NCBI GenBank assembly: GCA_039091335.1
Contig: JAWCME010000001.1
Location: forward strand, 1-64,000
Length of the DNA stretch: 64,000 bases
Direction of reading: 5' to 3'
Source: Candidatus Aenigmatarchaeota archaeon
GTDB taxonomy: Archaea > Aenigmatarchaeota > Aenigmatarchaeia > CG10238-14 > SCSR01
Part shown: positions 9,440-54,153 of the stretch, piece after piece
Numbering within the stretch: position 1 is the stretch's first letter
Layout of the letters: the number at the start of each line of letters is the position of its first letter
Program-made: the position numbers and the translations under genes
Notes under the pieces: model-generated
Database searches by the model: none
Seen by the model: the letters and a program-made list of their open reading frames with translations, nothing else
Told to the model about the DNA's origin: nothing

Positions 9440-9784
9440 TTACGGGTTTAAAATCTTAATATTTAGTTCTTCGGCCCTTTTTAAAATTTCTTCTCTCTTC
9501 TTTTTTCCTACTGTGCTGGAAATTTTTACTGCTTCTTTTTCTGGATTAATTTTTTCCAAATCTTTAACATTGCACACCAAAATTTCCCTAAATCCAGAAG
9601 GATGAAGGTATTTCAACCTTTTTGGTGCGCCATACCCTATATTAGGCATTTTTGGTTTTCCCTTCTCCCTTCTTCTTATTTTTGAGTGCATGCCTCTTGC
9701 TTTTCTCCATTTTGCCTTTCTTAACCTCTTATAAGCTTTCCACCCCGACCTTAAAAATTTTGGTTTCTTTTTGGGGTTTACCAT
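9440..9784 (-). CDS. rpl32e: 50S ribosomal protein L32e
   Basis: KPKFLR...WRKARGMHSK...GYGAP...LHPSG. Confidence 0.96.
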   Translation of the reverse strand: MVNPKKKPKFLRSGWKAYKRLRKAKWRKARGMHSKIRRREKGKPKMPNIGYGAPKRLKYLHPSGFREILVCNVKDLEKINPEKEAVKISSTVGKKKREEILKRAEELNIKILNP

Positions 9785-9788
9785 ATAA

Positions 9789-10313
9789 TCACTCCCTAGA
9801 AACTATGTATATTCCATCAGAGAATACTCTTCTGTCATATCCTTTAATTCTTGTTGATTGTTCCAATCTGCTTGCCATCAAACCAACATCCTCTATGTTT
9901 ATACCAGATACTATTATGTCCTGCCCTTCAACTTTTATGTCTACTCCCTTAACTCTTTTTGCAACTCTTGGAACTCTTTCACCAAGAAAATTTTGTATTA
10001 AAATTTTGTCCTCTTCAATTTTTAAGTTTACTGGAAAGTGAGAATATACAACTCTTAACTTATAAACAAATCCTTTTGTTACACCCTTTATCATGTTTTT
10101 AATATGTGCTTCTATGGTACCCACCATTGCCTTAATTTTTCTTCTTTCAGATTCAGAAAAAATCCTTATTTTATTTTCCGACTTTTCTATCCTTATTTCA
10201 CTAAATCCCTTGAACTCCTTTTCCAAACTTCCTTTTGGTCCAGAGACTTTAATTTTTCTTCCTTCTATTTCGATGCTAACTCCTTCTGGCACGATAATCT
10301 CTTTTTCGTACAT
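9789..10313 (-). CDS. rpl6: 50S ribosomal protein uL6
   Basis: VSGPKG...YSHFP...NFLGER...DRRVFSDGIYI. Confidence 0.97.
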   Translation of the reverse strand: MYEKEIIVPEGVSIEIEGRKIKVSGPKGSLEKEFKGFSEIRIEKSENKIRIFSESERRKIKAMVGTIEAHIKNMIKGVTKGFVYKLRVVYSHFPVNLKIEEDKILIQNFLGERVPRVAKRVKGVDIKVEGQDIIVSGINIEDVGLMASRLEQSTRIKGYDRRVFSDGIYIVSRE

Positions 10314-10430
10314 TTCAATCCCTTATTAATTAAATTTTTCTTGTTTTAATTTTCATCTAGCTTTTTGTCCTAAGTCAAAGAGAGTTATCTGTTTAATATG
10401 TTTAATATGGGATATTTTTCCTTTTAAGCT

Positions 10431-10817
10431 TTAATATATGTAACAAAGCAGTTTTCCGCCTATATGCAACTCCTTTGCTTTTATGTGGTCCATTACACCC
10501 TTTGAAGTACTTAGAATTAAAATCCCGAATTCTCTTCTAGGCAGGAACCTTTTCTCGTATTTTTCAAACTCTTCAATTTTAACTGAAAACCTTGGTTTTA
10601 TTACATTAACATTAATTATCCTTCCTTTTAGCTCTACTCTGAACTTTCCAGATTTTCCGTCGTCTATAAATTCAAAAGCTCCTATATAGCCCCTTTTCTG
10701 CATAACTTCTAGAACAGCCTTTATAAGCTTTGAAGCATTAACTATGCATTCTTTCTTTCCCACTCTTTCAGAATTTTTTATTGCAGACAACGCATCTGCT
10801 AGCTGGTCTTGAAGCAT
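10431..10817 (-). CDS. rps8: 30S ribosomal protein uS8
   Basis: [14 protein letters not shown]...IKPRF...STSKGVM...GGKLL. Confidence 0.97.
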
Positions 10818-10864
10818 TCTTCCACCTGTGGTATAATTTTGATTTAAATTTTTAAATTAAAAAA

Positions 10865-10964
10865 TGCGCCGAGCGGGATTTGAACCCGCGTTGCAAGCTT
10901 GGAAGGCATACGCCAAAGTTCGCGTCTTAGACCTTCAGCCTTTCGTAGGCTGGACCATCGGCGC
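10865..10964 (-). tRNA. tRNA-Gly(UCC) with two non-canonical introns (D-loop, 10934..10946; 29/30, 10908..10919)
   Basis: Removing ACGAAAGGCTGAA and ACTTTGGCGTAT yields a 75-nt cloverleaf: acceptor GCGCCGA/TCGGCGC+A, anticodon stem CGAGC/GCTTG, loop CT-TCC-AA, T arm GCGGG-TTCAAAT-CCCGC. Confidence 0.92.
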
Positions 10965-11144: not shown

Positions 11145-11488
11145 CCTATATATTCTGGATGCTTTATTGGAACTTGTATAGGTCTACCCTTTGGCCTTCT
11201 TTTAAAATATTCCTTGTATGCCTCCCAAATTTTTCTTCCCTTTTCTCCATGAAGAATTTTTATTATCAACTGTCTTGGCCTGAAAGGTTGTTCTGATGTT
11301 GGGTTGTAGTCTATAAGCACAACATCTCCAGCTTTAATCTTGTCACTAATTCTTGGGTCTACTAAATATGTTATTATATTCTCGTCCCACGTTTCAACTA
11401 CAGCCTGAACAGAATTATCAGAGCTTTCAACTTCTTTTTCCTTTGGAAAAATTACTTCCAATACAATGCCTGGATGGTAGTACACCAT
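11141..11488 (-). CDS. Conserved-looking hypothetical protein (beta-rich, possible OB-like fold)
   Basis: HPGIVLEV...QAVVETWDEN...GDVVLIDY; follows the DUF355 gene. Confidence 0.65.
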   Translation of the reverse strand: MVYYHPGIVLEVIFPKEKEVESSDNSVQAVVETWDENIITYLVDPRISDKIKAGDVVLIDYNPTSEQPFRPRQLIIKILHGEKGRKIWEAYKEYFKRRPKGRPIQVPIKHPEYIG

Positions 11489-11984: not shown

Positions 11985-12029
11985 TTTTTATTCAAAATTT
12001 AAATCTTGCTGAGGTTAAAAATAATAAAC

Positions 12030-13283
12030 ATGATTGGTTTAGTAGTAGTTTCTTCTAACATAGAAAAACAGAAAGAAGTAGGAGAAAAACTGAAAAAATT
12101 AGCAATCTCTACTTTTAATAAATTTTCAAACATAGAGTTTTTTGATTTGGTTTTTAATGAAGAAATGGCGAAAAATCTTGTAGGAAGAATTAAAAAGGAT
12201 GTTTGCGGATTAATAGTGCTTGTTGCGACTGGTGGGACTGAAAGAACAATAAGGGCTCTTGCTAAACTTAGAAAACCAATGCTTATCTTAGCAAATCCAT
12301 TTAATAATTCTCTTGCCTCATCTTTAGAAGCATATTCCAAAATTAAAGAAAAATACCGTGTAAAACTTTTCTATTCTGATTTTAATTCTGATTTTTTGCA
12401 TGAAATAAAATCTTTTTCTGAGGTGTGCGAAGTCATATCTAAACTTAAGGACTGTAAAATTGGGGTCATAGGCAAACCTTCAAAATGGCCTCTTTCTAAA
12501 AGAAACAAAAAACTCATAAGAAGGCTCGGACCAAGTTTAATACAACTAAAAATTCGAGATTTTTTAAAAGAGATTGAAAAAGTTAATGAAATAGAAGCAA
12601 ATAATTTGTTGAAGCGTTTACGCTTAGGAAAAATTAAAGTTTCTAAAAAAGAATTGATTAAAGCAATAAAAGTTTATTTGGCACTTAAAGGATTAGCGTC
12701 GAAATATAAACTTTCGGCTGTTTCTATCAAATGTTTTGATATTATGAATTACAACTATACTCCATGCCTGGGAGTGAGTTTGTGTAATGATGATAATTTA
12801 ATTGCAGGATGCGAGGCTGATCTACAAAGCATTTTAACTATGATAATTGTCTCTTTTGTTTCAAATCAACAATGTTGGATGGCAAATCCCTCGAGAATAT
12901 CTTTTGAAAAAAATACTATTTTGATAGCTCACTGCACGATTGCTACTAAAATGATTTCTGATAGCTCAAAAATAGAGTTGATTACTCACATGGAATCTGG
13001 AAGTGGTGTAGCTATAAGGGGGCCTTTAAAAAATAAGGAAATAACCCTTGTAAGACTTGGTGGAAACCTTGAGAAAATGTTGATAGCAACAGGAAAAATA
13101 GTTAAAAGCAATATGAAAGAAGAAAATGTTTGCAGAACTCAGGCCGAGGTTAAATTAAAAGGTAAAATTGAAAGATGGATTGAAAATTCTTTGGGTAACC
13201 ACCAAGTTTTGGTTTATGGTAACATCGAAAAAAAATTGATAGATTTTTGTAGATTTAAGAATATAGAAGCAATAGTAATTTAG
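12030..13283 (+). CDS. L-fucose/L-arabinose isomerase-like protein
   Basis: TGGTE, NSLASSLE, KCFD, GCEAD, AHCT, CRTQ, LGNH motifs. Confidence 0.82.
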   Translation: MIGLVVVSSNIEKQKEVGEKLKKLAISTFNKFSNIEFFDLVFNEEMAKNLVGRIKKDVCGLIVLVATGGTERTIRALAKLRKPMLILANPFNNSLASSLEAYSKIKEKYRVKLFYSDFNSDFLHEIKSFSEVCEVISKLKDCKIGVIGKPSKWPLSKRNKKLIRRLGPSLIQLKIRDFLKEIEKVNEIEANNLLKRLRLGKIKVSKKELIKAIKVYLALKGLASKYKLSAVSIKCFDIMNYNYTPCLGVSLCNDDNLIAGCEADLQSILTMIIVSFVSNQQCWMANPSRISFEKNTILIAHCTIATKMISDSSKIELITHMESGSGVAIRGPLKNKEITLVRLGGNLEKMLIATGKIVKSNMKEENVCRTQAEVKLKGKIERWIENSLGNHQVLVYGNIEKKLIDFCRFKNIEAIVI

Positions 13284-29984: not shown

Positions 29985-31088
29985 CTACCTTGTTATTTGT
30001 TGTGCTCGAACGAACTCCAAAAGCTCTTTTGCTTCTCTGTTTTTTTCAAAATATCTTCTCACAGGATCAAGTATTTTTATTATCTCTTCTGCAACAGTGT
30101 TTTTTAAATCCAGTGGGTGTAGCTCACCGGCCCTAAAAGATTTCTCCAGTTCTTCATAGGAGTGAAATTCTATTGTTCCTATTCTTCTTTCAATCTCAAT
30201 TGTTTTTTTCTTTCTAAATATTATATATTTACAAATCTCAAGAATTGGGTTGTTTTTTATTTCTTTTTCAGGGCAAAATGCTCCAAGGATTTTTTTTCTG
30301 ATTTCTTCTGGAGTATCATGGATGAAAATACATGTTTTTGGTATGGATTTAGCCATTTTACTAGATATCTGTATATCCAAACTTATGTTTTCTTCAAATT
30401 TTCCCATTCTTGTTGGTCCCTGCAACCCGATTAGAAGATGATGATGAACGCATACTGGACTCCACCACCCAAGCTTCGGTCCAAGCTCATGAGAAAGTAT
30501 TGTTGCCTTTCTTTGGTCCATCCCAAGTTGACAAATGTCAACTTCTAAATAGAATGGGTCTGCTGCTTGCATTGCTGGATAGAAAAGTTGGGCAGTATAT
30601 TGCATTTCTGCCTCCCTTCTTCCCATTATTGTGGAGCATCTTATCATTCTTTCTATTGTTGTTGCTTTAGCTATAGAGATAACCTTTTTCCAATATTCTG
30701 GATCTTTTACAACATCGCTCGTCCAAACAATCTCGGCTTTTTTTAAGTCCGCTCCACACGCCTTCCAAGCTTCTATAAGATATTTTCCTGTATTTTTTAT
30801 CTTTTCCAAGTCCCCTCCCATCTTGTTGTTTATCCAGGCGAACCAGTCTGCAACAAGAAACTTGAATCTTATTCCTGCATCTAGCAAGTCTTGAAGCTTA
30901 ATGGCTCTAAGTAATCCTGAACCCAAATGAGCAATTGTGGCTGATTTAATTCAGTTTCCACTTGGCTCAAAACCATCATATGCAACTGGGCATGGATTTG
31001 TTTGCAAAAGTTCTCTTAGACCTTCTTCTGTAATTATTTCTTCTGTAGGTGGAAGTTTTATTAAATCTATTTTAGTTTCTATATCCAT
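29985..31088 (-). CDS. tyrS: Tyrosyl-tRNA synthetase, two exons (31088..30956 and 30934..29985) joined after removal of a 21-nt BHB intron
   Basis: Exon 1 MDIETKIDLIK...AYDGFEPSG is in frame with exon 2 IAHLGSG...ADWFAWIN...YPAMQAAD...LGMDQRK...KMAKS; the seven intervening codons include TGA; spliced product is 360 aa. Confidence 0.92.
30935..30955 (-). other. Putative BHB mRNA intron in tyrS (ACTGAATTAAATCAGCCACAA)
   Basis: GTGG-AA|A-CTGA-attaaa-TCAG-CCAC-AA|T: 4-bp central helix, two 3-nt bulges and a 4-bp intron stem; cutting after the second bulge nucleotide restores FEPSGIAHLG. Confidence 0.88.
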
Positions 31089-54041: not shown

Positions 54042-54153
54042 GCCGAGGTGGCAGAATCAGGTAATGCGCAGCCCTGGAGTTTTTAGAAAGGCTGTGTCCC
54101 TCTGGGACGTCTGGGTTCAAATCCCAGCCTATGGTAATACCAGCTGAACGGCG
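54042..54153 (+). tRNA. tRNA-Ser(GGA) with 9-nt intron at 37/38 (54080..54088) and 18-nt BHB intron at 68/69 (54131..54148)
   Basis: GCCGAGG pairs with CCT[ATGGTAATACCAGCTGAA]CGGC+G; anticodon stem CAGCC/GGCTG; CT-GGA-G[TTTTTAGAA]A; variable arm GTCCC-TCT-GGGAC; TTTTATAA box at 54009-54016. Confidence 0.92.

Follow-up and report, generated by a model that had tools for sequence, protein, structure and literature searches.

The tyrosyl-tRNA synthetase (TyrRS) gene, tyrS, lies on the minus strand of a 64,000-nucleotide (nt) stretch of Candidatus Aenigmatarchaeota archaeon DNA, hereafter the window, to which position numbers refer unless a contig or locus is named (its own genome is labelled G000, genomes of relatives G### and locus sequences L###). 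The gene extends over 31088..29985, from an ATG at 31088 to a TAG at 29987-29985; its neighbours encode an amino-acid permease and a beta-CASP RNase, and no homing endonuclease gene stands beside it in the window. Translated from its start, tyrS reads ...PVAYDGFEPSGN, meets a TGA at 30953-30951, passes through IKSAT and resumes with IAHLGSG, all in one frame, and open reading frame (ORF) callers split it into an ORF of 45 aa and one of 313 aa that starts at a TTG. We consider it highly likely, given the letters themselves, their predicted fold and the inserts found at the same codon in relatives, that 30955..30935 is an archaeal endonuclease-type mini-intron of a relaxed bulge-helix-bulge (BHB) kind in the tyrS pre-mRNA, apparently undescribed. 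The features of the locus are collected in Table 1.

Cuts after the second base of each bulge take out exactly these 21 nt, and the excised message reads ...GGA-AUU-GCU-CAU..., corresponding to FEPSG-IA-HLGSG with the frame restored. In the predicted spliced mRNA ...AGUGGAA is joined to UUGCUCAU..., and the predicted peptide across the junction is ...FEPSGIAHLGSGLLR. An A is repeated at the splice sites, so that cuts displaced by one or two bases would give an identical product in G000. An earlier interpretation made from the letters alone (the sequence-only reading) had given the frame, the letters and the coordinates correctly to the base, and its cutting rule does remove exactly 21 nt and restore the FEPSG-IA-HLGS region. 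It had also raised the matter of a second intact tyrS elsewhere, and none was found in the G000 assembly (570 kb, 29 contigs, 87% complete), where tyrS is single-copy: the sole second hit, with an E value of 4.7e-5, lies in another frame of 375 aa and is probably trpS. Searches of G020, G015, G085 and G067 likewise returned one match each and no second copy. Residues 1-45 align by tblastn to the N-termini of relatives' TyrRS, exon 1 being conserved at 64-68% identity, and TGA is an ordinary stop in this genome, ending 100 of the 333 ORFs of at least 200 aa.

For a 48-nt stretch of tyrS, the minimum free energy (MFE) fold is the proposed structure (-13.5 kcal/mol, z score -3.40, with 0 of 200 shuffles as good), and this structure makes up 51% of the ensemble. 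The sequence-only reading had described the fold as a bulge-helix-bulge; its helix, bulges, intron hairpin and exon pairing are all present, whereas the 3' half is relaxed and not canonical. The outer exon helix does not adjoin the central helix, and CAA of the 5' strand faces AAU(U) of the 3' strand, thereby placing the 3' splice site in an asymmetric internal loop and making the motif a relaxed one, which we take to be HBh'-like in the nomenclature of Marck and Grosjean 2003.

Homologous inserts and compensatory changes in relatives

With the exon-2 protein as query, tyrS was found in 41 of 41 genomes, in 65 of 70 at the level of the family, 105 of 118 at that of the order and 293 of 371 in the phylum. 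Nearly all of these genes have an open frame of 355-390 aa and a few end at about 321-330 aa; read individually, each of the short-frame genes carries an insert at precisely the same place. Inserts of 20-31 nt at the same tyrS codon occur in nine of the 371 phylum genomes, from three families (five in f1, three in f21 and one in f23), and on four metagenome contigs. A phylum-wide search with the pattern TTYGARCCNAGYGGAWACT, composed of the exon end and the first intron bases, matched in tyrS only, and the reversed-pattern control matched nowhere in the 371 genomes. A similar pattern run against 185,579 species genomes gave eight loci, comprising three genomes already found and five intron-less genes in which a real Asn follows PSG, while a metagenome collection gave 12 loci, four of them in tyrS, where the inserts measure 21, 21, 20 and 20 nt, and the remaining eight chance matches in unrelated sequence.

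The inserts measure 20, 21, 23, 29, 30 or 31 nt. Their lengths shift the frame in G020, G015, G067, G192, G184, G176, L065 and L068, for which stop-codon read-through is therefore no explanation, and are a multiple of three with a single TGA in G000, G085, L058 and L064. In all 13 insert-bearing genes the bulge cutting rule restores the frame together with ...PSG-[I/M/L]-A-H-L-[G/P]..., and in all 13 an in-frame stop lies no more than three codons past the 5' splice site. The case of G067 is instructive as to where the cuts would fall, since the canonical cuts give S-G-I-A-H, as in the intron-less sister gene of G064, and a cut displaced by one base gives Leu in place of Ile. The exons are otherwise intact, with open frames of 321-330 aa and no further stops. 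The 5' splice site is a clean 3-nt bulge in 13 of 13, namely AAA in the nine genes of a first variant and AUA in the four genes of a second variant with inserts of 29-31 nt.

The nine sequences of the first variant were aligned for an analysis of covariation, and changes on both sides of the helices were found along with presence and absence of the insert among tyrS genes, as the sequence-only reading had proposed to look for. In this alignment 92% of cells are paired, compared with 26-47% when the partners are slid by one to three columns, and the covariation score was reached by none of 500 shuffles. All nine rows pair in the central helix, where the second base pair is C-G in four, U-A in four and U-G in one; on the exon side this pair involves the third base of the Ser codon, at which change is silent. 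The second variant, too, has a U-A or C-G pair here. Within the intron stem 97% of cells are paired and two of the four pairs have changed on both sides, one being G-C in seven rows and A-U in two and the adjoining one A-U in five, G-C in two, C-G in one and unpaired in one, such that the stem occurs as CUGA/UCAG, CUAG/CUAG or CUGC/GCAG with an inner helix of 3-4 base pairs (bp). RNAalifold, unprompted, predicts eight pairs, those of the central helix and the intron stem, as well as the 3-nt bulge.

The exon carries a matching constraint. Ser AGY followed by Gly GGA is used in 9 of 9 intron-bearing tyrS genes (eight counted, G067 read by eye), whereas intron-less genes use Ser AGY in 23 of 48 and Gly GGA in 16 of 48, a comparison made without a statistical test as the sequences are related. 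This is the outcome that a required GYGG-A would predict.

Other inserts and splicing enzymes of the lineage

The tyrS insert is not the only one of its kind in G000. The 16S rRNA gene measures 1,746 nt against a model of 1,478 positions, and it contains a 56-nt insert, GGUG-AAA-(11-bp stem)-CACC-UAA, with a fold z score of -3.98; cutting this insert by the rule used for tyrS restores the universal GAAACUUAAAGGAAUUGGCGG. It is a bona fide intron of the same architecture as the tyrS insert. The 16S gene has at least two more inserts, of 82 and 46 nt, and the 23S gene exceeds its model by about 240 nt.

Protein-coding genes were approached by a genome-wide scan for BHB motifs. Its first version was far too permissive (124,509 candidates and 3,319 'rescued' frames), and a stricter one gave 9,564 candidates, of which 253 rescued a frame and 33 showed A-rich bulges; after inspection and comparison with Pfam, tyrS, aIF5A and smc alone remained. 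Candidates before rtcB (C25:37082-37112) and ftsZ (C3:10106-10125) were set aside, as they resemble ordinary coding or leader sequence. In aIF5A the insert has the motif GGGU-AAA-GAUUG-...-CAAUC-GCCC-AAA and separates an exon 1 that matches IF5A-like_N (E value 1.6e-4) from an exon 2 that matches eIF-5a (9.8e-5), and the Lys directly after it is presumably the hypusine site. In smc the motif is UGGU-AAG-CUCAG-...-CUGAG-GCCA-AAA, with SMC_N profile positions 2-36 in exon 1 and 38-135 in exon 2. The 5' exons end in GUGGAA (tyrS, at the HIGH region), GGGUAA (aIF5A), UGGUAA (smc) and GGUGAA (16S rRNA), so that each of the four closes with G-G-N-A-A or G-N-G-A-A; the last two bases of the introns are AA or UA.

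Short inserts, for example of 19 and 13 nt, also sit at non-canonical positions of tRNA genes, in both the anticodon and the variable region. With introns allowed, ARAGORN finds only 25 tRNA genes in the assembly, several of them with implausible introns, and many of the tRNA genes of G000 are probably hidden by multiple introns.

Of the enzymes that would act on such inserts, RtcB is present in G000 (PF01139, 284.5 bits, profile positions 1-209 of 426) at C25:37091-37729, where a contig end interrupts it. The splicing endonuclease EndA was found in all 40 relatives that were searched, G020 and G015 among them; family f1 has one EndA gene, which encodes about 190-200 aa. Relatives' EndA has its best match in the alpha4 enzyme of M. 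jannaschii (1a79, E value 8e-33), and between its FRVY and EH motifs lies an insert of six residues, rich in Lys, that aligns without gaps to the catalytic subunit of N. equitans (3iey_A). The Lys-rich loop may let the enzyme take a relaxed 3' site. Loop-bearing alpha4 EndAs are placed in several DPANN lineages, and linked to heavily disrupted tRNA genes, in the part of Kaneta et al. 2018 (PMC5829648) that deals with them.

Two gene neighbourhoods are recorded here as observations in their own right. On contig C14 of G006 an EndA gene (12015-12293, minus strand) lies about 1.5 kb upstream of tyrS (9507-10445, minus strand), and in Haloferax endA forms an operon with trpS1, as stated in the relevant passage of PMC7714728; the proximity in G006 may be coincidence. 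In G015 an ORF of more than 417 aa (L014:2689-3939, plus strand) lies 83 nt upstream of the intron-bearing tyrS in divergent orientation and contains a borderline LAGLIDADG-like domain at residues 263-328 (E value 1.2e-4). This ORF may encode a homing endonuclease or belong to a gene with an intein, and no counterpart of it stands next to tyrS in the window.

Table 1. Positions of the tyrS elements, of other inserts in the same genome and of homologous tyrS inserts in relatives (window positions unless a contig or locus is named)
Feature	Position	Strand	Description
tyrS exon 1	30956..31088	-	MDIETK...PVAYDGFEPSG plus first base of next codon
Candidate BHB-type mini-intron, 21 nt	30935..30955	-	A-CUGA-AUUAAA-UCAG-CCAC-AA; basis: sequence, fold, homologous inserts
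tyrS exon 2	29985..30934	-	...IAHLGSG... to TAG; Pfam tRNA-synt_1b, E value 2.5e-41, profile positions 23-291 of 292
Outer exon pairing, 5' strand GAGC	30965..30968	-	Glu-Pro codons; pairs with GCUC in MFE fold
Central helix, exonic strand GUGG	30958..30961	-	Third base of Ser codon and Gly codon; partner 30937-30940
5' splice-site bulge AAA	30955..30957	-	Predicted cut between 30956 and 30955; 3-nt bulge in MFE fold and RNAalifold
Intron hairpin	30941..30954	-	CUGA 30954-30951, 6-nt loop AUUAAA, UCAG 30944-30941
In-frame TGA	30951..30953	-	One codon past 5' splice site
Central helix, intronic strand CCAC	30937..30940	-
3' splice-site AAU	30934..30936	-	Predicted cut between 30935 and 30934; asymmetric internal loop opposite CAA 30962-30964
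Outer exon pairing, 3' strand GCUC	30929..30932	-	Ala-His codons
16S rRNA intron, 56 nt	L048:9438-9493 = G000 C1:93438-93493	-	Between GAA and ACUUAAAGG
aIF5A insert, 24 nt	L047:19461-19484 = G000 C1:83461-83484	+	19.5 kb beyond window; between ...STSG and KHG...
smc insert, 25 nt	L092:2501-2525 = G000 C23:5200-5224	-	Walker A, between ...GPNGVG and KSN...
Insert-bearing tRNA gene	86-185	-
Insert-bearing tRNA gene	54042-54136	+
Insert-bearing tRNA genes	L048:7448-7550, 10808-10892, 11264-11388
Insert-bearing tRNA gene	L049:3468-3566
G020 tyrS insert, 20 nt			GUGG-AAA-CUGA-GUUUU-UCAG-CCAU-AAU
G085 tyrS insert, 21 nt			GCGG-AAA-CUGA-AAUUCU-UCAG-CCGC-AAU
G015 tyrS insert, 20 nt			GCGG-AAA-CUG-AAUUCUC-CAG-CCGU-AUU
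G067 tyrS insert, 23 nt			GCGG-AAA-CUAG-AAUAAUAA-CUAG-CCGC-ACU
G192 and G184 tyrS inserts, 29 nt			Second variant, AUA bulge
G216 tyrS insert, 30 nt			Second variant, AUA bulge
G176 tyrS insert, 31 nt			Second variant, AUA bulge

Proposed processing, alternatives and relation to known introns

The sequence and its comparison with relatives suggest the following course of processing. The exonic GUGG, from the Ser and Gly codons of ...EPSG, would base-pair with the CCAC at the intron's 3' end, and the 4-bp intron hairpin would stack on this central helix, with one splice site in the AAA bulge and the other in the AAU loop, each 3' of a central-helix strand. The tRNA-splicing endonuclease EndA would then cut after the second base of each site, and RtcB would join the exons to make the codon AUU and a full-length class I TyrRS with FEPSG-IA-HLGSG. 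An unspliced message would stop at the UGA, one intron codon in, and yield only the 45-residue peptide. We infer cleavage, ligation, the exact positions of the cuts and the presence of EndA in this organism.

Several observations weigh against this interpretation. In a 71-nt context the same helices form, and the energy is ordinary (z score 0.14). With both strands of the 570-kb genome counted, 9,564 places fit a loose BHB descriptor (4-bp helix with a 3-nt bulge, stem of 3 bp or more, 12-50 nt). The shape of the tyrS element by itself thus argues weakly for an intron, and the case that it is more than chance comes from the comparison with relatives. At the 3' site three bases (AAU, AUU, ACU or AGU) are in the right place, with two or three unpaired bases opposite. 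The outer helix GAGC(C)/G(G)CUC is offset, has 80.5% of its cells paired, shows no covariation and is absent from the RNAalifold prediction, and in the second variant, with its four inserts of 29-31 nt, the central helix consists of 3 bp and a G.A mismatch. The alpha4 type of EndA, which the relatives' enzyme resembles, is classically held to be strict for canonical motifs. No match to the EndA family model (PF01974) was obtained in G000, and a tblastn search of G000 with the EndA proteins of six relatives gave nothing with an E value below 0.2; we read the missing EndA as a gap in the 87%-complete assembly. Splicing would also need speed, for archaeal translation is coupled to transcription and the site is only 133 nt downstream of the start codon.

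Of the rivals one alone has some support, namely an enzyme made in two pieces without splicing, where a 45-residue peptide and a body of about 313-319 residues, translated by re-initiation, would assemble non-covalently; we regard it as improbable. It suits the 'MAH' group (G020, G085, G015 and L064), in which the downstream frame opens with an ATG located right at the insert's 3' end, 8-20 nt past the stop codon of the first piece. It would also agree with the entry for G020 (L010:1483-2439, plus strand), where a 319-aa ORF from the splice-site ATG, without 44 exon-1 residues, is in GenBank as 'tyrosine--tRNA ligase'; this entry also bears out the miscall by annotation pipelines that the sequence-only reading had anticipated. 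In G000, however, the nearest in-frame start is a TTG at 30926, which would lose I-A-H of the catalytic motif, and G067, L065 and the four variants of 29-31 nt have no start codon at the junction. The break would moreover fall inside the most conserved active-site strand and loop, and an enzyme in two pieces leaves unexplained the compensatory changes between exon and insert, the constant 3-nt bulge and the design shared with the 16S intron.

It is less probable still that tyrS is decaying or that the insert is an artefact of assembly or sequencing. A stop or frameshift within an essential gene speaks for this reading, and so does the reach of the public contigs: the runs that contain the window are hot-spring metagenomes, with none on record as RNA, none of the contigs of four public runs on the window spans 30906-30953, and the two runs labelled metatranscriptomic, which are probably DNA, each cover about 150 nt of tyrS exon 2 only. 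Against this stand 13 independent sequences from different assemblies with an insert at the same phosphodiester bond and otherwise intact exons, together with a conserved exon 1; no second tyrS was found in G000, G020, G015, G085 or G067. On these comparisons the insert is not an artefact and the gene is not dead. Translational recoding, that is, read-through of the TGA with a seven-residue insertion, a frameshift, or a hop like that directed by the ribosome bypass signal of phage T4 gene 60, is comparably improbable, for while a multiple-of-three insert with one TGA (G000, G085, L058 and L064) and a hairpin right after the GGA codon and the stop superficially recall that signal, close homologues with 20, 23, 29 and 31 nt would require a separate event for each, TGA commonly serves as an ordinary stop, the resumed frame is not preceded by a matching landing codon (GGA), and seven extra residues would sit directly before the catalytic His.

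The distribution of the tyrS intron among relatives is patchy. In a careful TyrRS tree of 53 rows the five intron rows need five changes, at least four of them forced by well-supported branches, and in a quick tree of 52 rows, to which two rows were added and from which the long-branch L031, L028 and L029 were left out, the seven intron rows need seven changes, at least five of them forced; partial sequences were kept out of both trees. A single origin of the intron on the TyrRS tree was considered and rejected on these counts. The intron rows fall in two well-supported clades beside intron-less sisters (G067 with G064, and G020 with G114), and the tree mixes families f1, f4 and f5 with strong support, G114 of f5 being sister to G020 of f1, which suggests that lateral exchange of tyrS is frequent in this group. 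Repeated precise loss, lateral spread of the intron and spread of whole tyrS alleles are all possible.

The tyrS element is most likely a neutral or selfish passenger kept by efficient splicing, and we saw no evidence in these data of a regulatory role for it. A more tentative idea, which we think somewhat unlikely, is that the tyrS intron is one copy of mini-introns that are spreading in a DPANN lineage into G-G-N-A-A sites, of which glycine-rich catalytic loops have many; insertion might proceed by reverse splicing or by a gene conversion akin to homing. The four 5' exon ends given above agree with such a target. If so, translation, chromosome maintenance and ribosome synthesis would all hang on one endonuclease and one ligase, and the conserved early stop would be a selected fail-safe against translating unspliced message.

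Among the closest known systems is cbf5, which encodes a pseudouridine synthase and whose pre-mRNA in Crenarchaeota was reportedly described as carrying a BHB intron by Watanabe in 2002 and Yoshinari in 2006. Yokobori 2009 (PMC2738675) is likewise reported to concern this intron. As in cbf5, the tyrS insert is an endonuclease-type intron in protein-coding sequence close to a catalytic motif, it is patchy among relatives, and a full-length protein would require its removal by the tRNA-splicing machinery. In contrast to cbf5, the host gene encodes an aminoacyl-tRNA synthetase, the host is a DPANN archaeon of the Aenigmatarchaeota type, and the intron is much shorter (20-31 nt). The relatives' EndA is alpha4-like with a loop insert, whereas that of cbf5 hosts is an (alpha-beta)2 heterotetramer with a Crenarchaea-specific loop, the enzyme type with which pre-mRNA splicing had been connected, and splicing of cbf5 has been shown experimentally while that of tyrS is predicted. 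In the window cbf5 itself is uninterrupted, as the sequence-only reading had remarked: TruB_N gives two adjoining matches at 1245-1586 on the minus strand, within one 314-aa frame without stops.

The tyrS insert also resembles archaeal tRNA and rRNA mini-introns in its 4-bp helix, its A-rich 3-nt bulge 3' of each strand and its stacked hairpin, a likeness most direct in the same genome, where GGUG-AAA-...-CACC-UAA of 16S rRNA compares with GUGG-AAA-...-CCAC-AAU of tyrS, and presumably the same enzymes process both. Unlike those of tRNA and rRNA, the tyrS host RNA is translated, so that one helix strand is constrained by Ser-Gly codons and splicing would compete with ribosomes, and the tyrS inserts keep an early in-frame stop. 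In eukaryotes, HAC1/XBP1 mRNA is spliced in the cytoplasm by Ire1 and a tRNA ligase, RtcB being the ligase in animals. The tyrS insert is similarly a short, non-spliceosomal mRNA intron whose removal, presumably by a protein endonuclease, alters the reading frame; HAC1/XBP1 differs in its endonuclease and motif and in being a regulated stress switch, and for regulation of the tyrS insert there is no evidence. In Haloferax volcanii the HVO_1309 mRNA contains a BHB element in its 5' untranslated region (UTR) that is processed by EndA, according to the passages on it in Schwarz 2020 (PMC7714728), which name cbf5 as the only other mRNA example then known besides this 5' UTR. Both HVO_1309 and, by prediction, tyrS would be mRNAs that serve as natural substrates of an archaeal splicing endonuclease; the HVO_1309 element lies in the untranslated leader, where no reading frame is broken, and the tyrS insert in coding sequence. 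For introns in protein-coding genes, the portion of a 2025 structural paper (PMC12397907) concerned with them cites just three cbf5 papers, and a search of the full-text literature, with subscription journals outside its coverage, returned nothing on a tyrS intron or on coding-region BHB introns in DPANN archaea.

Gene callers truncate or split genes of this kind, which skews completeness estimates, metabolic reconstructions and protein families in DPANN genomes. As a natural substrate of 48 nt, the tyrS element would offer a compact model for the action of loop-bearing alpha4 endonucleases on relaxed motifs. The literature has for more than 20 years named crenarchaeal cbf5 as the sole protein gene of archaea whose coding sequence contains an endonuclease-type intron, and the occurrence of such inserts in tyrS, aIF5A and smc of one genome from another superphylum indicates that the tRNA machinery splices pre-mRNA more widely than was believed. 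The tyrS intron would tie the making of a core translation enzyme to EndA and RtcB, and the cell probably must splice its tyrS mRNA with tRNA-splicing enzymes in order to make its essential TyrRS.

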